Shown: positions 4,792 through 63,462 of the stretch, one piece after another
Layout of the letters: each line of letters opens with the position of its first letter
Position numbering within the stretch: the stretch's first letter is position 1
Origin: Escherichia phage vB_EcoM_LNA2
Sequence record: MZ311865.1
DNA length: 64,000 nucleotides
Reading direction: 5' to 3' (one strand)
The notes under the pieces: generated by a model
Seen by the model: only the letters and a program-made list of their open reading frames with translations
What the model was told of the DNA's origin: nothing
Database searches by the model: none
Position numbers and translations under genes: made by a program

Positions 4792-4816
4792 GGGAGCCTT
4801 CGGGCTCCCATTTTTG
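4792..4816 (+). terminator. Intrinsic terminator after gene 8 (GGGAGCC-UUCG-GGCUCCC plus U-run)
   Basis: Perfect 7-bp GC-rich stem with UUCG loop followed by ATTTTTG. Confidence 0.8.
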
Positions 4817-11225: not shown

Positions 11226-11231
11226 TGAAAA

Positions 11232-11245
11232 GGGCCTTCGGGCCC
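11232..11245 (+). other. UUCG hairpin between wac and gene 13, no U-run
   Basis: GGGCC-UUCG-GGCCC immediately before the gene 13 RBS. Confidence 0.55.
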
Positions 11246-11257
11246 TAAAGGATTTAT

Positions 11258-18160: not shown

Positions 18161-18173
18161 TAAGACGCCTGAT

Positions 18174-18191
18174 GGGCTATTTCGGTAGCCC
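18174..18191 (+). other. Hairpin after gene 18, directly abutting the gene 19 late promoter
   Basis: GGGCUA-UUUCGG-UAGCCC inverted repeat. Confidence 0.5.
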
Positions 18192-18192
18192 A

Positions 18193-18200
18193 TATAAATA
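18193..18200 (+). promoter_or_regulatory. Late promoter for gene 19
   Basis: Exact TATAAATA in the 18-19 intergenic region. Confidence 0.65.
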
Positions 18201-24157: not shown

Positions 24158-24181
24158 TCTTAATTGATTAAATCTTATTTT

Positions 24182-24206
24182 GGGAGACTTCGGTCTCCCA
24201 TTTTTG
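24182..24206. terminator. Bidirectional terminator between gene 23 and the convergent small early gene
   Basis: GGGAGAC-UUCG-GUCUCCC followed by TTTTTGGTTTT; lies between convergent stops. Confidence 0.8.
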
Positions 24207-24209
24207 GTT

Positions 24210-24479
24210 TTATTTCTGTGCAATTTTGATGTAAGTTTTCAAAATATTTTGCCAATTAGGCATACCTTCTTGGACATATGCCGGAGAACCGTCTTTGTTT
24301 TTGAATGATGCAAGTTTATCAGTGGCCCAATAACCTTTAGCTCGAGCTTCAGAATCAACTTTCATCCATACTTTGTTGAAGGCATTACCATTAACTTTTG
24401 CACTATATTTTTCTACTAACTTAACTGCTTCAGCTTCCAGAACTTTTAAAGTATCTCGTAAGAAACGTGCTTTAGTCAT
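24210..24479 (-). CDS. Hypothetical small protein, early gene embedded between capsid genes 23 and 24 (segD position in T4)
   Basis: 89 aa ORF with ATG, RBS AGGAG, own GTTTAC/-10 promoter upstream and a hairpin terminator downstream; no family recognised. Confidence 0.6.
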   Translation of the reverse strand: MTKARFLRDTLKVLEAEAVKLVEKYSAKVNGNAFNKVWMKVDSEARAKGYWATDKLASFKNKDGSPAYVQEGMPNWQNILKTYIKIAQK

Positions 24480-24539: not shown

Positions 24540-24545
24540 AATCTT

Positions 24546-24553: not shown

Positions 24554-24579
24554 ATCTATATCACATAAGGAAAAATGCA

Positions 24580-25863: not shown

Positions 25864-25893
25864 AAAAAAAGGGACCGTAAGGTCCCTTTTTTT
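25862..25893. terminator. Bidirectional terminator between gene 24 and rnlB
   Basis: A-run, GGGACC-GUAA-GGUCCC hairpin, T-run. Confidence 0.8.
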
Positions 25894-25895
25894 CG

Positions 25896-27520: not shown

Positions 27521-27550
27521 TTTAAAAACGAAGAAAGGGGCCGAAGCCCC
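27521..27550 (-). terminator. Terminator downstream of hoc
   Basis: GGGGC-UUCG-GCCCC on the minus-strand transcript followed by U-rich tract. Confidence 0.7.
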
Positions 27551-27556
27551 TTACGA

Positions 27557-28972
27557 TTATGGATATGTATAGATGATACCAGTTTCTAAAGCAGTTTTAT
27601 GGATGATGTATCCATTACGTGATTCTTGAACATCAACTTCTGGGTAGTCTTTCATCATCTTCTGAAGAGTATAACGATGCAAGTAGTATTTACTATCTGG
27701 ATCGTCAATTTTCCAATCTTTACCTTCTTCAGTCATTTTTTGGATTTCATCCATAACCCACCATCCGCACCAGATGTAAGCTGAAGTACGATGTGGAAGA
27801 GGATGAACATAAGGTAGTTCACCTTCTGGTTCAACTGGAGTCCGTTCAGCAATGACAACTTCAGCGGTTGAACTAATTGTCTTTGAAGTATAATTATCTT
27901 TAGTTAATACTGCTTCAACTTTAATTGTATGAGTACCCGCTGTGGAGGTATCAATACTATAAGTATTAGTAGAATTACTTTCTGCTACATTGTCTTTCTT
28001 CCAAGAGTACACAATATTAGTATCACCAGGAGCACCAGTAACAGATGCTGTTAAAGTTGCAGTTTCACCAACAGTAGTATTAACTGATGACGGAGATAAA
28101 GAAATGGTGGCACTATTAAATGTCGCATTATTAGTTACTACTGTTGCTTCTGCTGAAATTTCTTTTGTAACATAATTTGTTGCAGAAACAGATGCGGTGC
28201 ATTTAAGAGTTTTACTTCCGACTTTGGTTGGAGTGAATTTATACGTAGCAGAAGTTGCATCCGGAATATTACTGTCATCCATTGACCATTGGAATGTTAT
28301 AGTAGCACCTGAAGGTGCACTAGAGACATTTGCAGTTAAAGTAATAGGAACACCAAAGACTGTAGTCGGAGACTCTGGTGTAATTTTTAGCGTTGAAGAA
28401 TTAGCCTTTTTATTTACAGTCAAAGAAACCGCTGATGATTCTACCGTTTTATCAACGTAATCAGTTGCAGTCACTGTGGCAGAGCAAGTTATAGACTTAG
28501 TTCCTTCAGATGTTGGTGTATATTCAAAGGTTGATTGTTTTTGACCGTCGACAGCGACCCCGTCAACTTTCCATGTATAAGCAATAGCAGCACCACTAGG
28601 TTGATTGCTTACATTAGCAGTGAATGTTGTTGCTGTTCCAATTTCTACTGCCGCCGGAGAAGCCGGAGTAACAGCGACGGTAGAATTATTTTCTTTCTTA
28701 TTAACAGTGATAGTTGTTGACGCTTCAGCTATTTCCGGATCTCCTGCGGAAAGTGTATTAGTTGCAACCACTTTAATTTTTTTTGTTCCTGCTGGAGAAG
28801 CAAGAGTATAATCCATTGTAGCAGCCGTAGAATCCTGTGCTATATCATCTACAGTCCAGACGTATGTAATAGTACCGTCCGGAGTTTCACCTGCAGGTGT
28901 AGCAGTGAATGTTTGTGAACCTCCAATAACCCCTGTAGGAGTTAAAGGAGATAACGTGACAGTGAATGCCAT
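27557..28972 (-). CDS. hoc: Highly immunogenic outer capsid protein Hoc with four Ig-like repeats
   Basis: 471 aa; C-terminal capsid-binding region (ELPYVHPLPHR...IIYTYP) resembles T4 Hoc; four repeats each carrying an I[TAV]YxW[TSK]xDD-type motif. Confidence 0.93.
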   Translation of the reverse strand: MAFTVTLSPLTPTGVIGGSQTFTATPAGETPDGTITYVWTVDDIAQDSTAATMDYTLASPAGTKKIKVVATNTLSAGDPEIAEASTTITVNKKENNSTVAVTPASPAAVEIGTATTFTANVSNQPSGAAIAYTWKVDGVAVDGQKQSTFEYTPTSEGTKSITCSATVTATDYVDKTVESSAVSLTVNKKANSSTLKITPESPTTVFGVPITLTANVSSAPSGATITFQWSMDDSNIPDATSATYKFTPTKVGSKTLKCTASVSATNYVTKEISAEATVVTNNATFNSATISLSPSSVNTTVGETATLTASVTGAPGDTNIVYSWKKDNVAESNSTNTYSIDTSTAGTHTIKVEAVLTKDNYTSKTISSTAEVVIAERTPVEPEGELPYVHPLPHRTSAYIWCGWWVMDEIQKMTEEGKDWKIDDPDSKYYLHRYTLQKMMKDYPEVDVQESRNGYIIHKTALETGIIYTYP

Positions 28973-29700: not shown

Positions 29701-31215
29701 ATGACTGACATTAAAGTACATTTTTATGATTTTAGTCACGTGCGCATTGAATGCGACGAAAGTACGTTTTACGAACTTCGTGACTTTTTTAGCTTTGAAG
29801 CTGACGGGTATAAATTTAACCCAAAATATCGCTATGGGCAATGGGATGGTAGAATTCGACTTTTAGATTACAACCGTTTGTTACCATATGGACTTGTAGG
29901 ACAAATAAAAAAGTTCTGTAGCAATATGAGTTATTCTGTATGGATTGACCCTAAAATCTTTGAGACCGAAGACCTTACCAGAGAAGATTTTGACGCATGG
30001 CTTTCTAAACAAGAAATTTATTCGGGCAACACCAAAATCGAACCACATTGGTATCAAAAAGATGCAGTATATGAAGGACTAGTTAATCGTCGTCGAATTT
30101 TAAACCTTCCGACATCAGCAGGTAAATCACTAATCCAAGCACTTTTAGCTCGGTATTATTTAGAGAACTATGAAGGTAAAATTCTCATTATCGTCCCTAC
30201 AACAGCATTGACAACCCAGATGGCTAATGATTTTGTTGATTATCGCTTGTTTAGTCATTCGATGATTAAGAAAATTGGCGGTGGTGCTGATAAAGCGGAC
30301 AAATCTAAAAGTGATGCTCCAATTATTGTTGGCACATGGCAAACGGTAGTTAAGCAGCCTAAAGAATGGTTCTCTCAGTTCGGTATGATGATGAACGATG
30401 AATGCCACTTAGCAACAGGCAAAAGTATTTCTTCAATCATCTCAGGATTAAATAATTGCATGTTTAAATTCGGATTATCCGGCTCATTAAGAGACGGAAA
30501 AGCCAATGTAATGCAGTATGTAGGCATGTTCGGCGAAATCTTCCGTCCTGTTAGCACGTCTAAATTAATGGAAGACGGACAGGTAACCGAGCTTAAGATT
30601 AATAGTATTTTCCTTCGTTATCCGGACGAATTCGCCACCAAATTAAAAGGTAAAACATACCAAGAAGAAGTTAAAATTATTACCGGACTAAAACGACGTA
30701 CAAAGTGGATTGCTCAACTTTCAGTCAAATTGGCTAAGAAAGACGAGAACGCCTTTGTAATGTTTAAACACGTTACACACGGTAAAGAAATATTTGAAGC
30801 TATTAAAGAGCTTGGATACGAAAAAGTTTATTACGTATCAGGTGAAGTTGATACTGAAACACGTAACGCGCTTAAAGTCATGGCAGAAAATGGTAAAGGC
30901 ATTATTATTGTCGCATCATATGGAGTATTCTCTACTGGTATTTCAGTCAAGAATCTTCATCATGTTATTTTTGCCCATGGTGTTAAATCAAAAATTATCG
31001 TACTTCAAACCGTAGGTCGCGTGCTTCGTAAGCATGGTTCTAAAGCTGTTGCTACAGTTTGGGATCTCATCGATGACGCAGGTGTAAAACCTAAATCATT
31101 AAATACTAAAAAGAAGTATACTCATCTTAATTACTTGTTAAAACACGGTATTGATCGTATCCAACGTTACGCTGATGAGAAATTTAACTATGTAATGAAA
31201 ACAATTAATTTATAA
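29701..31215 (+). CDS. uvsW: UvsW RNA-DNA / DNA-DNA helicase
   Basis: 504 aa; helicase motifs (PTSAGKS Walker A, DECH box); late promoter upstream; T4 synteny. Confidence 0.94.
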   Translation: MTDIKVHFYDFSHVRIECDESTFYELRDFFSFEADGYKFNPKYRYGQWDGRIRLLDYNRLLPYGLVGQIKKFCSNMSYSVWIDPKIFETEDLTREDFDAWLSKQEIYSGNTKIEPHWYQKDAVYEGLVNRRRILNLPTSAGKSLIQALLARYYLENYEGKILIIVPTTALTTQMANDFVDYRLFSHSMIKKIGGGADKADKSKSDAPIIVGTWQTVVKQPKEWFSQFGMMMNDECHLATGKSISSIISGLNNCMFKFGLSGSLRDGKANVMQYVGMFGEIFRPVSTSKLMEDGQVTELKINSIFLRYPDEFATKLKGKTYQEEVKIITGLKRRTKWIAQLSVKLAKKDENAFVMFKHVTHGKEIFEAIKELGYEKVYYVSGEVDTETRNALKVMAENGKGIIIVASYGVFSTGISVKNLHHVIFAHGVKSKIIVLQTVGRVLRKHGSKAVATVWDLIDDAGVKPKSLNTKKKYTHLNYLLKHGIDRIQRYADEKFNYVMKTINL

Positions 31216-31227
31216 GGGCTTCGGCCC
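31216..31227 (+). other. UUCG hairpin between uvsW and uvsW.1
   Basis: GGGC-UUCG-GCCC immediately before RBS AGGAG. Confidence 0.5.
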
Positions 31228-31240
31228 TTAGGAGATAAAA

Positions 31241-37703: not shown

Positions 37704-38813
37704 ATGATTAGTGTAAAAGAAATAGTAGTAGATGCAAAGGATTTAAATAAAGCAATCCCAGTCTCAGAAAGTGCTGGGCAAAGCACTAAAACCGAAACAA
37801 CTACTAAAACTTATGTTGCTCAATTTCCTACAGGAAGAGCAGCCGGAAATGACTCCACAGGAGACTTCCAGGTAACAGACCTTTATAAGAATGGATTATT
37901 ATTTACCGCGTACAATATGTCTGCACGCGATTCAGGATCCCTCAGGAATTTACGTCCGGCATACGCCGGGACTTCATCTAATGGTATCATATCAGATTTA
38001 ACCGATAATGTGAAAGATGCAGTGACTAAATTCTCAAACGGATTGCTTCCTGCTGGAGCTAATAAATCTACCATAAATAAAACTCCTGTTGCCAATATCC
38101 TTTTGCCACGTTCCAAATCTGACGTTGATACAACTTCACATCGTTTTAATGATATCGGTGATAGTCTTATTACTAAAGGTGGAGGTACTGCTACGGGTGT
38201 TTTAAGTAACATTGCTTCTACTGCAGTCTTTGGTGCATTAGATTCTATTACCCAAGGGCTTATGGCTGATAATAACGAACAGATTTATACGACTTCTCGT
38301 AGTATGTATGGTGGTGCTGAGAACCGTACTAAAGTCTTTACATGGGATTTAACTCCGCGTTCAACTGAAGACCTTATGGCTATTATAAACATTTACCAGT
38401 ATTTTAACTATTTCTCATATGGTGAGACAGGTAAATCACAATACGCCCAAGAGATTAAAAGTTATTTAGACGAATGGTACCGTTCAACGTTTATTGAGCC
38501 TATGACACCAGATGATGCAGTAAAAAATAAGACATTGTTTGAAAAGATTACTGCGTCATTAACAAATGTATTAGTTGTAAGTAACCCTACAATTTGGATG
38601 GTTAAAAACTTTGGTTATACATCTAAATTTGACGGGTTAACTGATGTATTTGGCCCATGTCAAATTCAAAGCGTACGTTTTGATAAAACTCCAAATGGAC
38701 AATTTAATGGTCTCGCTGTTGCTCCTAACTTACCATCAACATTTACGTTAGAGATAACAATGCGAGAAATTATTACATTAAACCGTTCTTCACTTTATGC
38801 GGGGACTTTCTAA
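37704..38813 (+). CDS. 48: Baseplate tail-tube junction protein gp48
   Basis: 369 aa; T4 synteny. Confidence 0.92.
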   Translation: MISVKEIVVDAKDLNKAIPVSESAGQSTKTETTTKTYVAQFPTGRAAGNDSTGDFQVTDLYKNGLLFTAYNMSARDSGSLRNLRPAYAGTSSNGIISDLTDNVKDAVTKFSNGLLPAGANKSTINKTPVANILLPRSKSDVDTTSHRFNDIGDSLITKGGGTATGVLSNIASTAVFGALDSITQGLMADNNEQIYTTSRSMYGGAENRTKVFTWDLTPRSTEDLMAIINIYQYFNYFSYGETGKSQYAQEIKSYLDEWYRSTFIEPMTPDDAVKNKTLFEKITASLTNVLVVSNPTIWMVKNFGYTSKFDGLTDVFGPCQIQSVRFDKTPNGQFNGLAVAPNLPSTFTLEITMREIITLNRSSLYAGTF

Positions 38814-39775
38814 TGTACTCTTTAGAAGAATTTAATAACCAAGCTATAAATGCAGATTTCCAACGAAACAATATGTTTAGTTGTGTATTTGCTACTACAC
38901 CGTCGACCAAATCGTCTTCACTAATTTCGTCAATTGGTAGTTTTGCTTATAATAACTTAGGGTTGGATTCCGATTGGCTAGGATTAACTCAAGGTGATAT
39001 CAATCAGGGCGTAACAACCCTGATTACGGCAGGAACACAGAAATTAATTCGAAAATCAGGTATAAGTAAATATCTGATTGGAGCAATGAGTCAACGTACG
39101 GTACAAAGCTTGTTAGGTGAGTTCACAGTAGGAGCTTATCTGATAGACTTCTTCAATATGGCATATAATAATACAGGTTTAATGATTTATTCTGTAAAAA
39201 TGCCTGAGAACCGATTATCTTATGAAACGGATTTCAACTATAACTCACCGAACATCCGAATTACCGGCCGAGAAATGGACCCATTAGTAATAAGCTTTAG
39301 AATGGATTCCGAAGCATCTAACTTTAGAGCAATGCAAGACTGGGTAAACTCAGTCCAAGACCCTGTAACAGGTCTTCGCGCTTTACCACAAGACGTCGAA
39401 GCAGATATTCAGGTTAATTTACATGCGCGAAATGGTTTACCACATACCGCTGTCATGTTCACTGGTTGTATTCCTGTTAGTGTCTCTTCTCCTGAGTTAA
39501 CGTATGATGGTGATAATCAAATAACAGTTTTTGATGTAACATTTGCTTATCGCGTTATGCAATCAGGTGCTGTAAATAGACAGGCTGCTTTAGAATGGTT
39601 GGAATCAGGACTTATTAGTAGTGTTTCAGGAATGTTTGGAAATAATCAGAATGATTCTGGTCTAGGAAGTGCAGTATCAAGACTTTCTAGATTAGGTGGG
39701 ACTGCTGGAGGTGTGTCTAATATAAACACATTGACAGGTGTGGTGAATTCTGCGTCAAGAGTTTTAGGACTATAA
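38813..39775 (+). CDS. 54: Baseplate tail-tube initiator gp54
   Basis: 320 aa, same as T4 gp54; T4 synteny. Confidence 0.92.
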   Translation: MYSLEEFNNQAINADFQRNNMFSCVFATTPSTKSSSLISSIGSFAYNNLGLDSDWLGLTQGDINQGVTTLITAGTQKLIRKSGISKYLIGAMSQRTVQSLLGEFTVGAYLIDFFNMAYNNTGLMIYSVKMPENRLSYETDFNYNSPNIRITGREMDPLVISFRMDSEASNFRAMQDWVNSVQDPVTGLRALPQDVEADIQVNLHARNGLPHTAVMFTGCIPVSVSSPELTYDGDNQITVFDVTFAYRVMQSGAVNRQAALEWLESGLISSVSGMFGNNQNDSGLGSAVSRLSRLGGTAGGVSNINTLTGVVNSASRVLGL

Positions 39776-39807
39776 GAAAAAGGGAGACGTTGTCTCCCTT
39801 TAGGGGT
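39776..39807. terminator. Bidirectional terminator between gene 54 and the convergent alt.-1-like gene
   Basis: GGGAGAC-GUUG-GUCUCCC hairpin with T-rich tracts on both sides. Confidence 0.75.
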
Positions 39808-40101
39808 TTATTTACGGAATGAAAGGAATGCTGGTGCTCGGAATGGAGTATCATCTTTAGAGTATTTAACTAATACGACCATTGGTACCTCTGTTTCTAA
39901 ATGACCTGTCACTACACCGACAAAAATTTGATCAGTGTGCTCAGGGTCGCGAAAGTTTTTAAGAGGTTCCATAGCAATATGGAATGCACCTGGGAATACT
40001 CGATTCAATTCTTCAATCACAGCTTCGTTAAAAACATCATCTGCCGGGATAACATCTTCAACTACTAGTTCTTGACCATTAAAGCGAAGCATAGATTTCA
40101 T
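39808..40101 (-). CDS. Hypothetical protein (alt.-1-like position)
   Basis: Internal ATG with RBS GAGGAAAA gives 97 aa; the ORF-track 121-aa version starts inside the promoter. Confidence 0.65.
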   Translation of the reverse strand: MKSMLRFNGQELVVEDVIPADDVFNEAVIEELNRVFPGAFHIAMEPLKNFRDPEHTDQIFVGVVTGHLETEVPMVVLVKYSKDDTPFRAPAFLSFRK

Positions 40102-40130
40102 AACGTTTTCCTCATGTTGTTGATTGGATG

Positions 40131-40160
40131 ATAGTATCACACATCCATGTGTTTGTAAAC
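40131..40160 (-). promoter_or_regulatory. Early-type promoter for the alt.-1-like gene
   Basis: Minus strand GTTTAC, 18 bp, TACTAT; about 30 bp upstream of the corrected ATG. Confidence 0.55.
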
Positions 40161-42247
40161 TATCCTTGGACAAATTTAAACGGAACTGATTCTAAATCCA
40201 TTAAAGATGCTAACAATTTCAAACCTTTAGGTGCACTAGTTTTTTCTACAAATGAGGCAAAAGATACCGGCTCATCTGATTCGATTTCACCAGTCATAGC
40301 AACTACCTCGCCTGTTTCCATGAGAACATCACCATCGTAAATGACAGCTTCGTCCAACTGGTCCGAGGACATGACTTCAGCTTGAATAAATTTAAGGTTG
40401 GATTCTAAACCTGCACCGGTGTCAGATGACGCATCTGTAATTTTATTTATCTGCAAGAGAATGCCTCTAGGCAAAATAATTTCTTGCTCATTAGGGTGAT
40501 TACTCAACTGTCCTGGATAAATCACGTTAACTTTATGGGCACCATCAATAGCCCATCCAACGTTAACACGGATTTGTTCTGGTGCATGCATAGCTGTTCT
40601 TACTTGACTAGGAGAAATAGTAACACCTTCGTCATTATTATCAATGTTAAGCTCTTTGCGAACTTCTTCAGGAGCAAGTCCAAGGGCAACGTTCTCTTTA
40701 AACCCGCCGAAAATAATAGGAGCTAGTGAAGTGGAAACATAGTTTCTGAAGTAGAATACCTTATTTTTAACCATTGCTTCGTAAATAGGCATTCTGATAG
40801 ACTGGGCTCTATACAACGTTAGTCCTTCAGGTAAACGGTCTCCATTTAAAAACGCCGAATCAAGACCATCAATAGCGCGTTTAACTTCATCTTCATCTGC
40901 AACATCATAAAAATCCGGTTTATAACGGCCTAACAACATATTATTGATATCGGTATACGCAGAAGAGGCATATTCGCGAATAGCTCGTTTTTCAGCAACA
41001 GAGTATTGTTTAGGGTCCCGATTCATTGTTATATTAAAGGTGCCTCTAGCCGATTCCCGTGCATAAGTATACATCACATTAGACAAGAACGCTGATTTAC
41101 GTTGTTTCCAAGTTCTTTCAGATACTTCAGCTAAAACGTCGTCGGGCAGTTGGAAATTATCACGTCTAAAATCTTCAAACCATTCGTCTTTAATAGAGTC
41201 TGCAATTTCATTTGCAGCTTCAACAAAAGCAGCTAATGCTTTAACAGATGTTGTTTTTTCAGTTTTAATTTTCTTAGCAAACTTTTCTAAAGTTGGCTTA
41301 ATAACACTACCATAAGAAACTTCATCGGCAAATCTAAAGGATTCATCAATACGATTATAAATCTTATTTTCGATATCAGCAACTAAAGTGCCTTTTGCTG
41401 TGGACGATGCTTGGGCTAGTACGATTTCATATGCTTCAGGAAGTAATTCGGCTGTAGCTGGGCCGCTAACTTCTTTAGCAGAATTTTCGTATTTCTGGAA
41501 TAACTCACCTTCTTGACGGTCAGCTTCTAAAGATTGACTTGCTGCAATAGCACGACGAGAAATTTTAGTACGAGCAATAACAGGCTTATCTTTACGTTTT
41601 TCTTCTACAGCAGCAATAGAACCAGCGATAGCCGTTTCTTTGGTGACCATTTCGCCAGTCTTTTTACTCACATAAACTTCGCCAACATCAGAATCTACTT
41701 TCGTGTACAACTCTGTGTTAATGTTAGGGATGCCTTTAATATCTTCAATGTTAGCATTTTTACGAACCATCATCACATAGGTGTGTTTACCTGTGAATTG
41801 ATACATTGCCGACAATACTTTAAAACGACCACCGGTTTTAGTAGAAACTAAACGAGCAAGAAGAGTTTGAAGTTGTTGTCCGCGTCCTTTCAATTTCTTG
41901 GTAGGGAATCGGAACAGAACTGCATCCATACGAAGAGCTTTAACCTGTTCATATACTGTATTGAAAATGGTGTTGATTGCATCAATAGGAGCAGGACCAA
42001 GGCCATTTTTCAATTCAGCGAGATTACCCTTTTCAGACAGACTCATAATAACAACATGAGCGTATTTGTCGCCAAGTTTAACTTGTTTTACAGCATCGCC
42101 TTCAGAAAGGTAAGAGAATAAGCGAACTACGATGTTTGTATCAACATCACCAATTTTCCAGACTTGTGGAACTTTAGCTTTAGGGTTCAAATTGACGACA
42201 GGAAGACTGCCTTCAGATTCAAACACTTCATTTAATTGTTCAGACAT
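40160..42247 (-). CDS. alt: Alt ADP-ribosyltransferase (packaged RNA polymerase modifier)
   Basis: 695 aa; T4 position between 54 and 30; similar length to T4 Alt. Confidence 0.88.
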   Translation of the reverse strand: MSEQLNEVFESEGSLPVVNLNPKAKVPQVWKIGDVDTNIVVRLFSYLSEGDAVKQVKLGDKYAHVVIMSLSEKGNLAELKNGLGPAPIDAINTIFNTVYEQVKALRMDAVLFRFPTKKLKGRGQQLQTLLARLVSTKTGGRFKVLSAMYQFTGKHTYVMMVRKNANIEDIKGIPNINTELYTKVDSDVGEVYVSKKTGEMVTKETAIAGSIAAVEEKRKDKPVIARTKISRRAIAASQSLEADRQEGELFQKYENSAKEVSGPATAELLPEAYEIVLAQASSTAKGTLVADIENKIYNRIDESFRFADEVSYGSVIKPTLEKFAKKIKTEKTTSVKALAAFVEAANEIADSIKDEWFEDFRRDNFQLPDDVLAEVSERTWKQRKSAFLSNVMYTYARESARGTFNITMNRDPKQYSVAEKRAIREYASSAYTDINNMLLGRYKPDFYDVADEDEVKRAIDGLDSAFLNGDRLPEGLTLYRAQSIRMPIYEAMVKNKVFYFRNYVSTSLAPIIFGGFKENVALGLAPEEVRKELNIDNNDEGVTISPSQVRTAMHAPEQIRVNVGWAIDGAHKVNVIYPGQLSNHPNEQEIILPRGILLQINKITDASSDTGAGLESNLKFIQAEVMSSDQLDEAVIYDGDVLMETGEVVAMTGEIESDEPVSFASFVEKTSAPKGLKLLASLMDLESVPFKFVQG

Positions 42248-42275: not shown

Positions 42276-42303
42276 TTTATGCCAAAAAGAGCCCGAAGGC
42301 TCT
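42276..42303 (-). terminator. Terminator between the 62-aa ORF and alt
   Basis: AGAGCC-UUCG-GGCUCU on the minus-strand transcript followed by UUUUUGG. Confidence 0.65.
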
Positions 42304-42491
42304 TAATCCACAATCGGGAGCAAAGTACGATAAACTTCAAAATTAGGGCCTTTTTCGTACTTATCAAAATTGTCCATAAAAATATTATAGGAATCGTTAT
42401 TAGGAAAATCTAATATAATCTGAGAGCAAGAGGTGGAAACATCTCCACCATCCTTCTTAGCTACAATAACTGTTTCTAAATAAGCTTTCAT
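42303..42491 (-). CDS. Hypothetical small protein between ligase and alt
   Basis: ATG overlaps the ligase stop (TAATG), 62 aa; ORF-track start is GTG further upstream; hairpin terminator overlaps its stop. Confidence 0.55.
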   Translation of the reverse strand: MKAYLETVIVAKKDGGDVSTSCSQIILDFPNNDSYNIFMDNFDKYEKGPNFEVYRTLLPIVD

Positions 42492-43984
42492 TATAAACCT
42501 GTCTGGGACCACGGTCCAAATACGTCTTCAAATGAATCCGCTTCTGTTTTATCAAAACGGAACCCTTTAATAATTGGAAGGAAAATACCTACAGTGCCTT
42601 CACGGCCTTTAGAATGAACCCAACCATTACATTCACAATCAGCGATACGTCCGATTAATTTACCTTCACGAGCTTCGGTCATTAATCGTTCACGGTCTAA
42701 ATCATGACGCTCGTCTAAAGGAATAAGAACCTTTACACCGTCAACTGTTTTATGAGTTGTATCTTTAAACCCTGAACCACAATCGGTTGTAATACGACGA
42801 CAACGTGATACGAGTTCGACACCACCTAATTTGTTAGGGTCTTTAGAGTGTTCATAGTATCCTACAACTTCTAAAGCGATATCAATAACTTCTTTAAATT
42901 TAATTAGGTTCTTAGAGCGTTTGTTTTCCCAATATGAATCACGGTTTTTAAGGATAATACCTTCAAGACCTTGGTCAACATATTTTTTATAAACCACTTT
43001 AGCTTCGTCAAGATTACGAACTAACTGATTTTCAATTGGCTCAATTCGCTTAAAGCCTTCAGCCATATTTTCAAGAGCAGCAAAACGAACATCGTATTTC
43101 TGACCTTTAATTTTGCCATCAGAATAGACTTCATCTAAAGGAACATAGTCCCAGGCTTGAAGAACCATACCTTCCGCTTCTTTAGGAGAAATAGTCCCTT
43201 GAAGAGATTTATTTGCTAAACCATTTGAAGTGCTACGGTCTGCAACTCGTACTTCTTCGGATTCTTCATTATCACCAAATAAGAACGATAGGTCATTTCC
43301 TGAGCTCACAGCCTTTTTAATATCAAATGAATGATAAACTAATTCACCGTCGATTAAAACCCCATTAGGGTGTCTTTCACGAGCTTCTTTAGTCATTTCC
43401 ATTAGTTCATCCGCTAATAGAGTAAGACCATGGTATTCGTTACCGGCACGAGAAAAGAATTGAACGCCATCATCGCGAACTTCAGCGAAACAACGAGCAC
43501 CATCTGCCTTTAATTGGGCAAATGCAGGCCATTTAATATTTTTAGTAATCAATTTCTCATCATATGCAGATGCTAACATCTGTGGCTGCAATTGAATAAG
43601 TCCAGGCCACACCTTATTCGCGATAGACACTGAAGCACCTACTTCAAGGTCTCGCATCATTACACGACGAAGGACTTCTACATCGTCAGGTTTACCGTCA
43701 GCGATATAACCCATGAGCTCTTTAATTGCAGCATTACCAGTGAGTTTACGAGTGGCTAATGTGAACTCAATAAAATCCAACATGTCATCTAATTCAAGAA
43801 GACCATACGCTTGAGACCTTTCACCTGGTCCTGGCCATTTCTTAATATAATACTGGATACCACGTGCATATGTTAAACGATACACACGTTCAAGTAATTT
43901 GTTGTCCTTATTTTTCTTAAGGATTTCTTGTTTTGTTTTAGTAGAACCGATCGCAGCTATTTGGTTTAAAATATCTAAAATCAT
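42491..43984 (-). CDS. 30: ATP-dependent DNA ligase
   Basis: 497 aa; N-terminus nearly identical to T4 ligase (MILDILNQIAAIGSTK...); adenylation motif AQLKADGARCF. Confidence 0.96.
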   Translation of the reverse strand: MILDILNQIAAIGSTKTKQEILKKNKDNKLLERVYRLTYARGIQYYIKKWPGPGERSQAYGLLELDDMLDFIEFTLATRKLTGNAAIKELMGYIADGKPDDVEVLRRVMMRDLEVGASVSIANKVWPGLIQLQPQMLASAYDEKLITKNIKWPAFAQLKADGARCFAEVRDDGVQFFSRAGNEYHGLTLLADELMEMTKEARERHPNGVLIDGELVYHSFDIKKAVSSGNDLSFLFGDNEESEEVRVADRSTSNGLANKSLQGTISPKEAEGMVLQAWDYVPLDEVYSDGKIKGQKYDVRFAALENMAEGFKRIEPIENQLVRNLDEAKVVYKKYVDQGLEGIILKNRDSYWENKRSKNLIKFKEVIDIALEVVGYYEHSKDPNKLGGVELVSRCRRITTDCGSGFKDTTHKTVDGVKVLIPLDERHDLDRERLMTEAREGKLIGRIADCECNGWVHSKGREGTVGIFLPIIKGFRFDKTEADSFEDVFGPWSQTGL

Positions 43985-44250
43985 TTGATGTCCTCGATTT
44001 TGGTTACGGTTCTATTATAAGCCACTTCATCTAGAAGCGATTTCAGCGTTTTCTGATAAGTGGTAATCCATTTACCGAGCCCTTCAACATAGTATTCTGA
44101 AATGTAGATGAACCCTTGTTCAACACACTCTTTAAATATTTCTGCGTCTTTTACTGAACGAAACAATGGCCAGTCTCGAAAGAACATGTTAACGTGACCG
44201 TAGTCACGTGTGGTGTTTTTGCCATCTGTAATATCATGAACTACAAACAT
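43981..44250 (-). CDS. Hypothetical protein (30.1-like)
   Basis: 89 aa ORF with ATG; overlaps ligase start. Confidence 0.7.
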   Translation of the reverse strand: MFVVHDITDGKNTTRDYGHVNMFFRDWPLFRSVKDAEIFKECVEQGFIYISEYYVEGLGKWITTYQKTLKSLLDEVAYNRTVTKIEDIK

Positions 44251-45982: not shown

Positions 45983-46597
45983 CTACTTAATGAAATTAAT
46001 TTCTACCGGATGAACAACAGGTTGAGCAGTGATATATTGAGTAATTGCTTTCATGACTAGAGCTTCAGAACCAGGATTTTTCTCAACGAATTCACGTGCT
46101 AGGTTATGAGCTTCAAGTTCACTTAGTAAACCACTTCGTTGACATCCACGGTCTTGAGTACCCTGTTCAGATAAAAAGGCGACGATGTATTTTTCATCGT
46201 CATACGGTTTAGACGGTTGAGCAAATGTTCCTTTACTTCCAAAAGGAGAGTTATGACGCCACATCACGCCGTTAGGAGTTTCAACCTTCGTATATTCGTG
46301 TGGGCCATTTTTCTTAGTTTCTTGATGTGGAACTTCGTGGACCTTAGGGTTAGGACATTCAATAAAATGCTCATCTAAATCGGTCGAGAATATTAAAGAA
46401 AAACAATTACTAAATTTACCAACACCTGCCTGATAAATTTTACCTTCAGACGTTCTAATTTCACAAACCGAGCCGGCATCAGTAACTTCTAAAACTTCAA
46501 AAGGCTCGATAAGGTCATATGAGAACATGTTTTTAAGGCGTGGAGTAATATCCCCATTTTTAAAATTCATTTTATAAAAAGTATTAACTTTAAACAT
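45983..46597 (-). CDS. Hypothetical protein
   Basis: 204 aa ORF; RBS GAGGAAA; UUCG hairpin immediately upstream; His-containing segment NPKVHEVPHQETKKNGPHEY; no family recognised. Confidence 0.7.
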   Translation of the reverse strand: MFKVNTFYKMNFKNGDITPRLKNMFSYDLIEPFEVLEVTDAGSVCEIRTSEGKIYQAGVGKFSNCFSLIFSTDLDEHFIECPNPKVHEVPHQETKKNGPHEYTKVETPNGVMWRHNSPFGSKGTFAQPSKPYDDEKYIVAFLSEQGTQDRGCQRSGLLSELEAHNLAREFVEKNPGSEALVMKAITQYITAQPVVHPVEINFIK

Positions 46598-46609
46598 AAT
46601 TTCCTCAGT

Positions 46610-46625
46610 GGGAGCCGAAGCTCCC
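46610..46625 (-). other. UUCG hairpin immediately upstream of the 204-aa ORF RBS
   Basis: GGGAGC-UUCG-GCUCCC on the minus-strand transcript. Confidence 0.5.
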
Positions 46626-46632
46626 AGTTAAA

Positions 46633-46998
46633 TTAGATATCGAATTCATTAAGAACTACATCAAAGATTGCTTCGAGATGTTCAGGTTTAGCTCGATGAC
46701 TCAGGATATGACGAATCCAAGTTTTAACCAGAAGTTTACGATTAACACCGTTCCAGCAAGGATGGGTACCTAAATCACGTTGACGGAAATCGTCATCTAA
46801 AGCGATTTTAAAAGTAGAACCTTCCATCGTGATTGAAACCGTGATGCCATTTTCAAATCGCATATAAACGTAATTAGGAGTCATGCACTGTTCGATTTCA
46901 CAAACTGTACCGTTTTCATGTTTCCATAAGCAAATAACTTCAGAAGAACCAGCGATACCGTTAGAAACATATCTGCGTTCGAAGTTGATGTAGTTCAT
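46633..46998 (-). CDS. Hypothetical protein (30.7-like position)
   Basis: 121 aa ORF; early-type promoter upstream. Confidence 0.7.
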   Translation of the reverse strand: MNYINFERRYVSNGIAGSSEVICLWKHENGTVCEIEQCMTPNYVYMRFENGITVSITMEGSTFKIALDDDFRQRDLGTHPCWNGVNRKLLVKTWIRHILSHRAKPEHLEAIFDVVLNEFDI

Positions 46999-47072: not shown

Positions 47073-47441
47073 TTATGCAACTTTAATCCAATTGTCTAAA
47101 TTTAAAACACCTTTGGCTTTCATTTTTTCGATCAGGCTATCTGCTGTAATGCGTCCATTTTGATACCATGTAACATCTTCAGAGTAACCAGTTTCTTCGT
47201 CAACATATGTTTCTGAACGAATTTTACCGGTAATAATAGTTTTTAATTCGTATGTGTCACCTGTGAAAAAGTTTGCTAACACAATTTTCCAAGAGAAATC
47301 ATCTGAAGGACCTTCAGGGGTCATACAACCTACGAACTCAAATTGCTCTTTGTATAACATCCACCGGAATTCTTTAATTTCGATAGCTTTATAACCGCCG
47401 TGGTCTTTACATTTGATGTATGAGTTCAGATTGATTTTCAT
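47073..47441 (-). CDS. Hypothetical protein (30.8-like position)
   Basis: 122 aa ORF; early-type promoter upstream. Confidence 0.7.
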   Translation of the reverse strand: MKINLNSYIKCKDHGGYKAIEIKEFRWMLYKEQFEFVGCMTPEGPSDDFSWKIVLANFFTGDTYELKTIITGKIRSETYVDEETGYSEDVTWYQNGRITADSLIEKMKAKGVLNLDNWIKVA

Positions 47442-47483: not shown

Positions 47484-47512
47484 ATAGTAACACATCCTAC
47501 AGGAGAGTAAAC
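47484..47512 (-). promoter_or_regulatory. Early-type promoter for the 122-aa ORF
   Basis: Minus strand GTTTAC, 17 bp, TACTAT. Confidence 0.5.
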
Positions 47513-47540
47513 ATCTTTTTTTAAACTTTTTCTGCCCTAA

Positions 47541-47568
47541 ACGCACAAAAGGGAGACCGAAGTCTCCC
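47541..47568 (-). terminator. Terminator downstream of the 59-aa basic ORF
   Basis: GGGAGAC-UUCG-GUCUCCC on the minus-strand transcript followed by UUUUGUG. Confidence 0.75.
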
Positions 47569-47573
47569 TAAAT

Positions 47574-47753
47574 TTATGCAACAACCTTTCCAAAACGAGA
47601 AGCATCATCTCGAAGAACTGCACGTGCTCTGCGCATGATCTTCTCAACTGTTTGATTAATACGAGAGTTCGACCCACGCTTGTATCCAGCGCGTTTAGAG
47701 GTACCATCAACTTTCTTTTCAACTGCTTTCTTTGCTTTAGCTTGTTTTGCCAT
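47574..47753 (-). CDS. Hypothetical small basic protein (59 aa), below the ORF-track cutoff
   Basis: ATG start; MAKQAKAKKAVEKKVDGTSKRAGYKR...; exact-copy UUCG hairpin terminator downstream; the ORF-track 47537..47722 ORF is in another frame. Confidence 0.55.
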   Translation of the reverse strand: MAKQAKAKKAVEKKVDGTSKRAGYKRGSNSRINQTVEKIMRRARAVLRDDASRFGKVVA

Positions 47754-48021
47754 TATAAATTCTCTTTAAATGAAAATGCAGGACTTATTGACATTGCCTG
47801 CGCAAGCCCTCAAGGGGAACATAGGTTTTGGGTATTTAACGACAGGATAACCATAAACCCGTCATCATACTTACCATGACTTACACAGCTAACCTTTTGC
47901 TGACGCATGATAGTACAAAATACATTCAAGAGGTACACCGTAAAATTGTCGGGGCGGTACTTCTAAAACATAGCGATTCGCAAATCGATAATCAGACAAT
48001 TCGACGGCTCCTCGATTTAGC

Positions 48022-55757: not shown

Positions 55758-55787
55758 ATTGTACCACAATCCTTGTGGTGTGTAAAC
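55758..55787 (-). promoter_or_regulatory. Early-type promoter for rnlA
   Basis: Minus strand GTTTAC, 18 bp, TACAAT. Confidence 0.55.
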
Positions 55788-56197
55788 TACTTTTTCTTAT
55801 GTTGGATATTCCAAGGCGGGTTGAACTTTTTGATAAAAAGTGGTTCTTCAAGGTCCATTGTTGCGATGGTCATTGAACCAAGTTCGTTGGTGACTGAAAG
55901 ATCAAAACATTGGCGGGCCCAGAATTCAACCTTTTTGCCTTGCATTAAGGCATCCAAAATCATAAGTGATTTTCTTGAATCTGAAGTCTGGTCTTTTCGA
56001 TTTATGGCTGTTCGATAATAGTTAATGCGTTTCTTTAAATTCTTGGTTTTACCAATATACACAAGTTCGTCATCTATAGCAATAGCGTATATGACATTTT
56101 TCTTATTAGGGACATCAACTGTTTTAATTGTTGCATCTTCTAATAGCTCCAATTCTGTATATTTAATAAAGGAATATTCGGCGGCAATATCTTTCAT
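55787..56197 (-). CDS. denA: Endonuclease II (GIY-YIG family)
   Basis: 136 aa as in T4 DenA; GIY-YIG-like VIYAIAI...LVYIGKT; T4 position between rnlA and nrdB. Confidence 0.88.
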   Translation of the reverse strand: MKDIAAEYSFIKYTELELLEDATIKTVDVPNKKNVIYAIAIDDELVYIGKTKNLKKRINYYRTAINRKDQTSDSRKSLMILDALMQGKKVEFWARQCFDLSVTNELGSMTIATMDLEEPLFIKKFNPPWNIQHKKK

Positions 56198-56219
56198 AAT
56201 AAAGTGGGACCGAAGTCCC
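56198..56219 (-). other. UUCG hairpin between nrdB and denA (weak terminator or mRNA-stabilising structure)
   Basis: GGGAC-UUCG-GUCCC on the minus-strand transcript; short U-rich tail. Confidence 0.5.
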
Positions 56220-56223
56220 GTCC

Positions 56224-57402
56224 TTAGAAATATTTTTTGTATGAATTGATTACATTTTGGTCTACATCATTATCAATTTGTGCGACAAGATAAGAACTGA
56301 TTTCAACTTCCTGAGGAGCTGCTTGAACTAAATCGGAGTTCAGATATTCACGAATCCAAGGATATGGATGCTTGGTCGGAGCATCAGTGATTGGGCATGG
56401 CAAACCACACTGTTTCATACGAGACACAGTCAAGTAATCGACAAAAGCACACATACTCTGCGTATTGATACCTGGACATGTACCGTCTTTAAAGAGGTGT
56501 GCAGCCCATTCCTTCTCTTGTCTATTTACTTCCATAAAAATATCAACTGCTTCTTGTTCACATTCTTTAGCAATTTGAACCCACTCATCACCATCAGTAC
56601 CAGATTGAAGTTGACGGATAATGTACTGAGTACCCTTGAGGTGGAGTTGTTCGTCACGAGCAATGAACTTCATAATCTTTGCATTGCCTTCCATAATTTC
56701 CATATTTTTATGGAAGTTAAAGGTACATGCAAATGATACGTAAAAACGAATAGCTTCTAAGGCGTTGATAACATGCAAACAGAGATAAAGAGACTTCATT
56801 AAATCACGCTTAGCAGCGGCTTCTTGCTTAATAGCACGTTCTAATTGAAGGTCTGCACCAATTGACGCTTTGGCTAGTTCCGTGAATTCTTTCTGGTTTT
56901 CCCAATGGCGGGTCTTGACTAGAACATCATCGTAATATTTACCTATTGATTCAGCTCGTTTCATGATTGCTTCGTCTAATACAATCTCATCAAATACCTT
57001 AGATGGGTCTGTATAAAGATTTCGCATGATATGAGTATATGAACGAGAGTGAATAGTTTCACTGAATGTCCATGTTGCAACCCATGTATCTAATGAAGGG
57101 TCAGAAATCAGTGCCATAAGTACCGCAGATGGGGCTCTGCCTTGGATAGAATCTAATAATGATTGATACTTAAGGTTGTTTGTAAAGATGTCCTGTTGGA
57201 ACTGAGGAAGCTTATTGAACTGCGCAGAGTCCAACATCAAGTTTACCTCTTCGGGGCGCCAGAAAAATGACAATTGCTTTTCGGTCAAATCTTCAAAAAC
57301 TTTATGGCGTTGAATATCATAACGCGCAATACCAAGACCCGAACCGAAGAACATAGGTTCGTTCAAAACATCGACTTGTTGTGTGTTAAAAACTGTACTC
57401 AT
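56224..57402 (-). CDS. nrdB: Ribonucleotide reductase small subunit, uninterrupted
   Basis: 392 aa from ATG 57402 (MSTVFNTQQ...); ORF-track start is 4 codons upstream; no intron. Confidence 0.94.
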   Translation of the reverse strand: MSTVFNTQQVDVLNEPMFFGSGLGIARYDIQRHKVFEDLTEKQLSFFWRPEEVNLMLDSAQFNKLPQFQQDIFTNNLKYQSLLDSIQGRAPSAVLMALISDPSLDTWVATWTFSETIHSRSYTHIMRNLYTDPSKVFDEIVLDEAIMKRAESIGKYYDDVLVKTRHWENQKEFTELAKASIGADLQLERAIKQEAAAKRDLMKSLYLCLHVINALEAIRFYVSFACTFNFHKNMEIMEGNAKIMKFIARDEQLHLKGTQYIIRQLQSGTDGDEWVQIAKECEQEAVDIFMEVNRQEKEWAAHLFKDGTCPGINTQSMCAFVDYLTVSRMKQCGLPCPITDAPTKHPYPWIREYLNSDLVQAAPQEVEISSYLVAQIDNDVDQNVINSYKKYF

Positions 57403-57455
57403 TATATTTCTCACTTAGTTTTAACTCATCCATGAGTAAATTATAATCAAAAGAC

Positions 57456-62024: not shown

Positions 62025-62054
62025 ACTATAACATAACCCTATCTGATTGTACAC
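62025..62054 (-). promoter_or_regulatory. Early-type promoter for the frd.2-like ORF
   Basis: Minus strand GTGTAC, 18 bp, TATAGT. Confidence 0.45.
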
Positions 62055-62446
62055 TACTTTTTAAAAGTTTTTTGCAAAAGTTCGATGATTTCGTCGACGT
62101 TGGTTTCATCTACGATACAATGGATTTTTGTTACACCTAAAGCTATACCTTCGTTAGTAGGTTGAGGCTTTACTATATCTACCTCAGTAAAGTATTTGAA
62201 CTCGTCAGGATAAATCTCAAAATAAGTTTCAATTTCACCACCGGCAGAACATACAGTACCATCTTCCATAGTTACACTTACTACGTTTGACGTATCGCTA
62301 TCATAATCAGGTTCCATTCCGTTTACAACAAAACTAGGCCCGTGGAGTTCAATCAATTTTAACATCTTAGCGTTATTGTGTGGTGCTTCTTGAACAAAGT
62401 CGTCTTTAAATAAAGGGTTAATGATATAAGATTTTCCGATTTCCAT
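62054..62446 (-). CDS. Hypothetical protein (frd.3-like)
   Basis: 130 aa ORF; RBS GAGGAAA; early-type promoter upstream. Confidence 0.7.
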   Translation of the reverse strand: MEIGKSYIINPLFKDDFVQEAPHNNAKMLKLIELHGPSFVVNGMEPDYDSDTSNVVSVTMEDGTVCSAGGEIETYFEIYPDEFKYFTEVDIVKPQPTNEGIALGVTKIHCIVDETNVDEIIELLQKTFKK

Positions 62447-62475
62447 TTTGATTTCCTCATGTTGTTGATAGGTCT

Positions 62476-62504
62476 ATACTAACACATCCAGGGAAGAAGT
62501 AAAC
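62476..62504 (-). promoter_or_regulatory. Early-type promoter for the frd.3-like ORF
   Basis: Minus strand GTTTAC, 17 bp, TAGTAT. Confidence 0.5.
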
Positions 62505-62525
62505 AACTTTTTCAGCAATTTACAG

Positions 62526-62553
62526 ATACTCAAAAGGGAGACCGAAGTCTCCC
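62526..62553 (-). terminator. Terminator downstream of gene 32
   Basis: Exact copy of the GGGAGAC-UUCG-GUCUCCC hairpin followed by UUUUGAG. Confidence 0.75.
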
Positions 62554-62559
62554 AATTTA

Positions 62560-63462
62560 TTATAGACCAGCTAACAGGTCATCGAGGTCGCCATCATCAG
62601 AGGATGAGGTAGAGCTCATGAAGTCATCTTCAGTTTTTGCAGAACTAAAGGCTTCCATGTCTTTATCAAAATCGTCAAGGTCAGAAGCAACTTTATCTGC
62701 AACAGAAGCTGCTGCGGCTGCTGCACCACCAAGAGCGGCAGTACCAAGAACCTTAGCGAAAGATTCATTTAATTTTTCAAAGGATTTGAACTGGTCTTTA
62801 GCCGTCAAAGTAGTAAGGTCTACCATCTGGTCATATAGTTCTTTCTGGAATGCTTCGTCATTAATACGAGGAATTTCAGATTGACCCAAGAATTTAGATT
62901 CGTCATAGTTGCTAAAACCAGAAACCTGCTTAGCTTTAAGAACGAAGTTAGCACCTTCAAACGGGCAAGTAACATCAACTGGAGTTTCACCCATTTCAGT
63001 ATCAACTGCAATCATTGCATTAATTTTGTCCCAAATCTTTTTACCGAAACGATATTTAAATACTTTACCTTCGTTATCTGGAGCTTGAGGGTCTTTAACA
63101 ACCAGAATATTAGCCCAATAAGAAGTTTTACGTTTCAGTTGAGAATATTCATTTTTGTTGGTATTGTACAGGTCATTTTTACTAATGTACTGACATACAG
63201 GACAAGAGTCATAATCACCATGTGTAGAAGAGCAATTTTCAATATACCATTTACCATTTTTCTTGAAACCGTGGTTAACAAGAATTGCAAATGGTAGTGC
63301 ATCATCAGTTTTTGCTGGCAAGAAACGAATTACCGCTTGACCATTACCGGATGCATCTAGCTTCAGCTTCCATTCGCCTTTATCTTCTGAAGAGAAACCT
63401 TTGTTACCATTCAGTTTAGCCATTTGAGCAGCGAGGTCAGCAGTAGATTTACGTTTAAACAT
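62560..63462 (-). CDS. 32: Single-stranded DNA-binding protein gp32
   Basis: 300 aa; zinc-binding region and acidic C-terminus; T4 synteny; operator-like leader upstream. Confidence 0.96.

Follow-up and report, generated by a model that had tools for sequence, protein, structure and literature searches.

According to PMC8948821, citing Tuerk et al. (1988), CUUCGG hairpins are especially abundant in the intergenic regions of bacteriophage T4, and the motif CC-UUCG-GG has been described as "recurrent in T4 hairpins", with a function in termination or RNA stabilisation (bioRxiv 10.1101/2022.08.31.505936). A UUCG cap placed on a terminator stem in an engineered system cut read-through approximately 2-fold (PMC3905868). 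Intergenic T4 terminators with GGAG, often capped by UUCG, resist RegB (Durand et al., PMC1702504); since structured GGAG in such UUCG-capped terminators is RegB-resistant, a special RegB role for the GGAG in the 5' arm of the hairpins described here was dropped. The T4 RefSeq and GenBank records contain no terminator features, and a search of the literature on 3'-end mapping (Term-seq, long-read) of T4-type phages found nothing usable.

The window analysed here, a stretch of 64,000 nucleotides of Escherichia phage vB_EcoM_LNA2 (MZ311865.1), belongs to a T-even phage of the genus Mosigvirus (RB69-like group) that is ~97% identical to phage HX01, with identities of 96-99% to phages including APCEc01, 308Ecol101PP, JS09 and HX01. 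A hairpin scan of the window recovered 11 strong UUCG hairpins, comprising three exact copies of one 18-mer and eight variants. We posit that these hairpins are very probably Rho-independent terminators or attenuators and 3'-end protective hairpins of the classical T4-type c(UUCG)g intergenic kind. The feature is already known as the classical cUUCGg hairpin of T4, and in phage ATK47 the same hairpin already carries an annotation as a predicted terminator. More specifically, the GenBank record of ATK47 annotates the gene 32 hairpin, and that of R5505 the gene 23 hairpin, as terminators predicted by ARNold, and the ATK47 record lists another nearby element (locus 1311-1331) as a possible terminator predicted by PHIRE.

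The 18-mer GGGAGACUUCGGUCUCCC (= GGGAGACTTCGGTCTCCC) occurs at 24182-24199 on the plus strand and at 47551-47568 and 62536-62553 on the minus strand, exactly where the initial annotation had placed it. No matches are expected by chance, as none were found in 100 dinucleotide-preserving shuffles, which rules out a chance origin of the three copies. When up to three mismatches are allowed, the sole extra match in the window is GGGAGCCTTCGGGCTCCC at 4792. The exact copies lie 4-25 nt past the stop codons of genes 23, 30.9 and 32. Copy 1 (24181..24215, plus strand) reads U-GGGAGAC-UUCG-GUCUCCC-A and then UUUUUGGUUUUAUUU, 24 nt past the stop codon of gene 23, which encodes the major head protein (22589-24157). 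Copy 2 (47537..47569, minus strand) reads A-GGGAGAC-UUCG-GUCUCCC-U and then UUUGUGCGUUU, 4 nt past the stop of a gene for a basic protein of 59 aa (47574-47753), named gene 30.9 after the HX01 annotation gp30.9. Copy 3 (62524..62553, minus strand) reads GGGAGAC-UUCG-GUCUCCC and then UUUUGAGUAUCU, 6 nt past the stop of gene 32, the gene for the ssDNA-binding protein (SSB; 62560-63462).

The variants listed by the initial annotation were all recovered, with coordinates that differ by 1-3 nt; that list was correct as far as it went, but it did not include the u(UUCG)g hairpin at 18172-18193 or the fourth use of the 7-bp stem, under a triloop, at 39782-39798. Five of the variants are followed by a U-run. 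On the plus strand, the hairpin at 4792..4815 (GGGAGCC-UUCG-GGCUCCC then AUUUUUG) lies 3 nt past the baseplate wedge gene (gene 8, 3784-4788) and upstream of a late promoter motif, TATAAATA, at 4821-4828, and that at 18172..18193 (AUGGGCUAU-UUCG-GUAGCCCAU, closed by U-G) follows the tail sheath gene (gene 18, 16178-18160), its last base overlapping a second TATAAATA motif at 18193-18200. On the minus strand, the variant at 27535..27552 (AAGGGGC-UUCG-GCCCCUU then UCUUCGUUUUU) lies 4 nt past a hoc-like gene (27557-28972), that at 42287..42304 (AAGAGCC-UUCG-GGCUCUU then UUUGG) lies between alt.1 (42303-42512) and alt (40160-42247), and the short hairpin at 56206..56219 (GGGAC-UUCG-GUCCC then ACUUUAUUAU) lies between nrdB (56224-57414) and an endonuclease gene (55787-56197).

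The other three variants have no U-tract and are placed right before a Shine-Dalgarno sequence. The hairpin at 11231..11246 (plus strand; AGGGCC-UUCG-GGCCCU) is located between the fibritin gene (9777-11225) and the gene at 11258-12184, and directly precedes the Shine-Dalgarno sequence of the latter. The hairpin at 31213..31230 (plus strand; UAAGGGC-UUCG-GCCCUUA) includes the stop codon of a UvsW-type helicase gene (29701-31215), and immediately after it come GGAG and the start codon, at 31241, of the gene that follows. Lastly, the hairpin at 46609..46626 (minus strand; UGGGAGC-UUCG-GCUCCCA) lies between gene 30.7 (46633-46998) and the gene at 45983-46597, 3 nt before the Shine-Dalgarno sequence of the second gene.

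The MFE folds of the local RNA include every hairpin of the set, and the exact copies have z-scores of -3.1 to -3.6 against shuffled sequences (-3.6 for copy 1). Stems are 5-9 bp long with at least four G-C pairs, the isolated hairpins have energies of -7.5 to -14.1 kcal/mol, and the loop is closed by a C-G pair in 10 of the 11 (U-G in the remaining one, at 18172); by computation, the set thus consists of the stable G+C-rich RNA hairpins characteristic of intrinsic terminators. A comparison of the whole window with Rfam at gathering thresholds gave no family match, and a known RNA family was rejected, the sub-threshold matches at 47540-47666 being to the terminator ends of unrelated sRNA models.

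Location and orientation set these hairpins apart from the rest of the sequence. Coding sequence takes up 95.2% of the window, yet the 11 strong UUCG hairpins are confined to the remaining 4.8% (3,080 nt); of 15 strong tetraloop hairpins in intergenic DNA, 11 have this loop. In every case it is UUCG, and never CGAA, that lies on the sense strand of the preceding gene, which bears out the statement of the initial annotation that the loop is UUCG on the transcribed strand. Scanning the complete HX01 genome for tetraloop hairpins revealed 21 intergenic and 2 coding-region UUCG hairpins, the next commonest loop being GAAA (n = 2), and the first 50 kb of T4 contain seven UUCG hairpins, the gene 60 take-off hairpin among them. 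A sense-strand position downstream of a gene end, as expected for terminators, was found for 11/11 hairpins in the window and for at least 22 of the 23 in HX01, which lie downstream of a gene on the same strand; all seven T4 hairpins (1-50 kb) are likewise in the sense orientation. As a DNA palindrome is indifferent to the orientation of its loop, this bias puts the selected function in the transcript. The gain predicted by the Turner model for UUCG over its reverse complement CGAA is merely ~0.9 kcal/mol; a bias this strict for so small a modelled gain suggests that something beyond modelled stability contributes, for example the kinetics of folding or a tetraloop bonus missing from the model.

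We infer termination at these hairpins from their anatomy, position, orientation, conservation and covariation. Once E. coli RNA polymerase has moved past the stop codon, the nascent RNA would fold fast, nucleated by the tetraloop; where a U-run is present, the RNA:DNA hybrid would be destabilised and a fraction of the transcripts released, and the terminal hairpin would then block 3'-to-5' exonucleases and thereby stabilise the upstream message (gene 23, 30.9 or 32). A U-run is found 3' of the stem in 8 of the 11 UUCG hairpins, the exceptions being those at 11231, 31213 and 46609. The initial annotation had reported a U-tract after each exact copy; the tracts are present, but they are short or interrupted (UUUUUGGUUUU, (U)UUUGUGCGUUU and UUUUGAGUAU), with just four U and then a purine at copies 2 and 3. 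A generic terminator scan did not list copy 2 (47551), copies 1 and 3 being outside the region scanned. The four-residue U-runs of copies 2 and 3, combined with the missing listing of copy 2, make partial termination likely, and the copies with four U would probably allow some read-through. Variants with no U-tract cannot be canonical terminators; those at 11231, 31213 and 46609 are most likely only intercistronic barriers for stability or processing ahead of the next ribosome-binding site.

These features also bear on a somewhat unlikely alternative, in which the main role of the hairpins lies in RNA stability or processing (as barriers to 3' exonucleases once an endonuclease has cut, as 5' protection of the downstream cistron, or as spacers insulating neighbouring ribosome-binding sites) and transcription reads through them. 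It would account for the three hairpins that lack a U-tract and directly adjoin a Shine-Dalgarno sequence, and for the short U-tracts of copies 2 and 3, and most T4 transcription units are long and overlapping. RNA stabilisation is moreover named as a function of CUUCGG hairpins in the literature (PMC8948821; bioRxiv 10.1101/2022.08.31.505936). A pure stability element, however, needs no T-run, whereas one follows 8 of the 11 hairpins here and, among the matches listed, 107 of 122 occurrences of the 18-mer elsewhere (see below). Convergent gene ends also argue against it, since they reuse the stem flanked by an A-run and a T-run in the manner of bidirectional terminators. More specifically, the same 7-bp stem occurs with a GUU/AAC triloop at 39779..39801 (hairpin 39782-39798; AAA-GGGAGAC-GUU-GUCUCCC-UUU), with the A-run on one side and the T-run on the other, between the convergent tail tube gene (38813-39775, plus strand) and an ORF on the minus strand (39808-40173), and we regard it as a putative bidirectional terminator. 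A second convergent-end hairpin, at 25864-25894, has a GUAA loop and is likewise flanked by an A-run and a T-run. Both elements have the sequence anatomy expected of bidirectional terminators.

Further evidence against transcription simply reading through comes from new promoters, which lie immediately beyond all three exact copies and also beyond the 4792 and 18172 hairpins, an arrangement that fits one transcription unit ending and the next beginning. Late TATAAATA motifs are found after the 4792 and 18172 hairpins and also before gene 24. Ten early promoter motifs were identified in the window, all on the minus strand, against 0.9 expected by chance. Two of these T4-type promoters follow exact copies: GTTTAC-N17-TACTAT at 47484..47512 (minus strand), 38 nt downstream of copy 2 and preceding the gene at 47073-47441, and GTTTAC-N17-TAGTAT at 62476..62504 (minus strand), 31 nt downstream of copy 3 and preceding frd.2 (62054-62446). 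Copies 2 and 3 each make, with the promoter downstream, a module of terminator and early promoter.

Absence of the copies from otherwise collinear relatives, which the initial annotation had named as the result that would speak against its reading, was not seen. HX01 carries the same hairpins at every orthologous site compared (26-64 kb of the window and the gene 23 copy), and contains four exact 18-mers, the fourth being located after gene 35, outside the window, and one triloop variant. Beyond HX01, orthologous loci were surveyed in IMG/VR regions around homologues of gp32, gp23 and RIII, the hairpin of each relative being the best one chosen in the respective downstream region (gene 32, gene 23 and rIII-30.9 surveys). 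In T4-like relatives, a strong hairpin with a U-run is almost always present 3' of gene 32, gene 23 and the rIII-30.9 unit. A hairpin with U-tract occupies the same position at the gene 23 site in ~70 relatives, and orthologous hairpins were found at the gene 30.9 site in 25 of 29. The loop at orthologous sites is usually UUCG within the Tevenvirinae, and GCAA, GAAA, UACG, CUAGA or GCAAU in more distant relatives.

The stems themselves are far from fixed, with at least eight different ones recovered at the three orthologous sites (GGGAGAC, GGAGCC, GGGACC, GGGACUC, GGACUCC, GGGAACC, GGGAGCC and others); T2 and T4, for example, have different stems in their orthologues of the gene 23 hairpin. 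Structure is therefore conserved over sequence at three sites, as judged from hairpins picked as the best per region, and RNAalifold, run on an alignment made without such picking and spanning the first 62 nt past the gene 32 stop, also predicts the hairpin, with compensatory double changes in 5 of the 6 consensus pairs. The combination of an intergenic 3' position, a sense-strand loop, U-runs and positional conservation with compensatory changes points to a selected structural module, and supports the suggestion of the initial annotation that the module serves termination or RNase protection.

Exact reuse of one hairpin had been taken as a sign of that selection, and while the module does appear to be selected, the reuse itself deserves less weight. 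The identical 18-mer was found in at least 120 unrelated viral contigs of IMG/VR, from many environments and of many sizes, with unrelated flanks. Among the matches listed, 107 of 122 occurrences, read in the direction that gives UUCG, have a T-tract after the hairpin (five or more T within 8 nt), and just 28 of the 122 have an upstream A-tract. Stems also resemble one another across genomes: of pairs drawn from different sites in different genomes, 10% agree in all six loop-proximal bases, whereas random sequence would do so once in 4,096. It is possible that few stems meet all the demands placed on such a hairpin, namely a 5' G-run, a 3' C-run beside the U-tract, a purine-rich 5' arm and a C-G closing pair, and we propose that the same 18 bases recur because so few satisfy these constraints together. 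From these sequence comparisons, we take the 18-mer to have been reached convergently, and not by the spread of an element. With a stem vocabulary this narrow, and with recurrence in unrelated phages, three or four identical copies are less remarkable than the shuffle statistic implies, and the exact reuse of the 18-mer here is not special.

We regard it as extremely improbable that the 18-mer spread by copying, whether as a REP- or MITE-like mobile miniature element or as the binding site of a sequence-specific phage protein. Identical copies do occur at unrelated loci, four of them in HX01, and PHIRE-type finders have flagged repeated regulatory elements or possible terminators in this group of genomes (ATK47 record). 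Nothing similar extends beyond the hairpin, however, and neither terminal repeats nor target duplications accompany it; orthologous sites hold other stems and are not empty; unrelated environmental phages carry the 18-mer within unrelated flanks, nearly always with a T-tract; and no Rfam family was found above threshold. Neither conservation beyond the palindrome nor presence/absence polymorphism, the hallmarks of REP- and MITE-like elements, was observed. Repeat searches and alignments showed the three copies to be alike over the 18-20 nt of the hairpin and no further, and a longer dispersed repeat around them was rejected for this reason. Exceptions to this pattern of similarity are a separate family of early promoters, and the terminators of genes 8 and 23, which are 78% identical over 50 nt.

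A different role in DNA exchange was also considered, in which the palindromes and early promoters form the borders of exchangeable cassettes, in the manner of the promoter early stem-loop (PeSL) elements, and supply short patches of homology in addition to the RNA role. The initial annotation had raised a short repeat mediating recombination, and this suggestion has a precedent in published PeSL-mediated shuffling, where crossover points map to the stem-loop or its vicinity, and in deletions of T4 at GGGC/GCCC motifs (PMC2839356). The positions are also suggestive: the copies sit at cassette borders, the coincidence with mosaic junctions that the initial annotation had proposed to check. The gene 23 copy in particular lies exactly at a variable cassette, where T2 has nothing, T4 has segD and the window has an ORF of 89 aa, which has its own early promoter beside the gene 23 terminator. 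Copies 2 and 3 are followed, 31-38 nt on, by a conserved family of early promoter, 5'UTR and Shine-Dalgarno sequences, and the promoter/5'UTR segment of copy 3 has a counterpart of ~85% identity over 102 nt in phage ECCR664, where it follows another UUCG hairpin at a different locus. This promoter/5'UTR/Shine-Dalgarno part is a repeated family with ~65-80% identity, the identity between copies 2 and 3 being interrupted between hairpin and promoter; PeSL cassettes are characterised by ~100 bp conserved from copy to copy, enough for homologous exchange. Stems and flanks at the three sites vary among Mosigvirus sublineages, in which the neighbouring proteins are 84-95% identical.

Several observations weigh against exchange as the reason for these hairpins. 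Firstly, a DNA palindrome needs no UUCG on the sense strand, yet this orientation holds for 11/11 hairpins in the window and at least 22/23 in HX01, so that the bias reflects selection on RNA and not on the palindrome. Secondly, the copies are similar over 18-20 nt only, the homology patches used by T4 recombination being put at under 50 bp by Arbiol et al. (PMC2839356), and the same 18-mer is found in unrelated phages within unrelated flanks. Lastly, spacers tolerate insertions anyway, and a location at mosaic borders is thus expected for any terminator. We therefore regard a recombination role as possible but secondary, and the cassette-border reading as unlikely.

The identity of stems at different sites is 30% within a genome compared with 10% between genomes (three sites; kinship ignored), and different-site stems thus match more often within than between genomes, as cassette exchange would have it, although this excess ignores shared ancestry. 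Pure convergence does not predict such an excess. Among the 26 genome types sampled, the lineage of the window is alone in using a single stem, GGGAGAC, at each of the three sites. We do not regard the excess of matching stems within genomes as established. One speculative and rather improbable extension is that T-even terminator stems evolve in concert through short-patch recombination or gene conversion of the ~20-nt palindromes, perhaps together with cassette exchange. If so, this would explain the presence of GGGAGAC at four or five sites and the threefold within-genome matching of stems, and the hairpins, besides terminating transcription, would be favoured sites of crossover that help to set where the mosaic borders of T4-like genomes fall.

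Read as terminators and 3'-end stabilisers, the hairpins would show where transcription units have their 3' ends (genes 8, 18, 23, hoc, alt.1, 30.9, 32 and others), which is useful for operon maps, and they could be employed as compact natural terminator parts; their importance beyond annotation is small. An 18-nt terminator reached by convergence, together with the narrow stem vocabulary of T4-type phages, also cautions against inferring mobility or recombination from short exact repeats.

Compared with E. coli intrinsic terminators, the hairpins share a G+C-rich stem of 5-9 bp with G in the 5' and C in the 3' arm, a tetraloop, a U-run and a position after the stop codon. They differ in the runs of four U at two exact copies and in the three members without a U-run. 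UUCG accounts for 21 of the ~30 strong intergenic tetraloop hairpins of HX01, and this dominance of a single loop seems greater than in E. coli terminators.

The PeSL cassettes of phages RB49 and phi1 (Arbiol et al. 2010, PMC2839356) likewise unite a stem-loop, a strong early promoter of the sigma-70 type, an A/T-rich stretch and a Shine-Dalgarno sequence within a single intergenic unit, and resemble the present elements in their GGG...CCC-rich stems and in their ties to small genes of unknown function at variable loci. In the commonest PeSL classes the stem-loop lies within or overlaps the promoter, whereas here it is located 31-38 nt upstream of the -35 element, and no early promoter shares a strand with the gene 23 copy or with the other copies of the late region. 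PeSL stems are not described as UUCG-capped (PMC2839356), unlike the hairpins reported here.

The closest described counterparts are the C(UUCG)G intercistronic hairpins of T4 (Tuerk et al. 1988 PNAS 85:1364), which, as summarised in the citing literature, occur in the same subfamily (Tevenvirinae), have the same loop and closing pair, lie at the same intergenic sense-strand location, and have been assigned the same proposed roles as terminators or stabilisers. T4 itself has a UUCG hairpin at the orthologous gene 23 site, as do T4-like IMG/VR genomes at the gene 32 site, and the difference from the T4 type is confined to the stems, which are GGGAACC after gene 23 in T4 and AAGGAGCC after gene 32 in the T4-like IMG/VR genomes. 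The take-off stem-loop of T4 gene 60, involved in translational bypass, is also capped by CC-UUCG-GG, which shows that T4 employs the same tetraloop module for other RNA functions as well; unlike the hairpins of the window, it sits in a coding gap and acts on the ribosome.

Early-promoter motifs of the form GTTTAC-N16-18-TANNAT occur ten times in the window, against 0.9 expected by chance, and all ten lie on the minus strand (24510, 27354, 40131, 47040, 47484, 51042, 53168, 54574, 55758 and 62476). Several of these continue into a 5'UTR and Shine-Dalgarno segment that is conserved (TATAGAC.TATCAACAA.TGAGGAAAT.AAAATG), and early promoter, 5'UTR and Shine-Dalgarno segment form a dispersed family in the window with members of about 55 nt each. 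The spacer 3' of gene 32 contains a 102-nt match (62451-62554) of 85% identity to positions 2501-2602 of Escherichia phage ECCR664 (OL631257.1), another Tevenvirinae phage, where they lie in a spacer of the e.6/tRNA.2 region. Both spacers have the early promoter and 5'UTR in common, while the UUCG hairpin that precedes them differs in its stem.

An interval of approximately 270 nt separates rIII from gene 30.9 (47754-48021, minus strand). It yielded no convincing ORF, its reading frames being only 36-42 aa long with GTG or TTG starts, and an Rfam search of the interval returned zero significant matches. Among relatives the downstream terminator follows the rIII stop codon at a spacing of 347-606 nt, so the interval is variable. 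In one of these relatives, the IMG/VR contig IMGVR_UViG_2706796116, the site orthologous to the exact UUCG hairpin copy 3' of gene 30.9 lies ~347 nt past the rIII stop codon and carries AGGGGCUCC-CGAA-GGAGCCCCU followed by UUUUU, as would result from inversion of the hairpin; this is the only case seen of a CGAA loop on the sense strand.

Hairpins with other tetraloops are also encoded in the window. Two are capped by c(UACG)g, a loop of the UNCG class like UUCG, and both are coding and in sense orientation: one with an 11-bp stem near the start of a 527-aa gene (8245-8270, plus strand; gene 8194-9777), the other with a 7-bp stem inside an 89-aa gene (44192-44209, minus strand; gene 43981-44250). 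In the late region, the main hairpins without a UUCG loop are a pair of intergenic GAAA hairpins, both plus-strand (sense) and without a U-tract, of which ACCGGUC-GAAA-GGCCGGU (12974-12991) precedes a Shine-Dalgarno sequence and GGUUGGGGA-GAAA-UCCCCAGCU (18768-18789) lies 3' of the gene at 18273-18764. A symmetric hairpin of 13-14 bp, A7-GGGACC-GUAA-GGUCCC-U7/8 (25864-25894, both strands), occupies the 32-nt spacer between the convergent gene 24 (capsid vertex, plus strand) and an RNA ligase gene (minus strand). It is very strong whichever strand is read (about -18 kcal/mol) and has the appearance of a bidirectional terminator whose loop is not UUCG.

In the region 24210-24579, upstream of gene 24, an 89-aa ORF assigned to phrog_6003 (unknown function; 24210-24479, minus strand) and its own T4-type early promoter (24510-24539) are inserted, with the gene 23 terminator on one side and the late promoter of gene 24 (TATAAATA, 24546) on the other. 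At the same gene 23/24 position T2 has nothing, and T4 carries the homing endonuclease gene segD.
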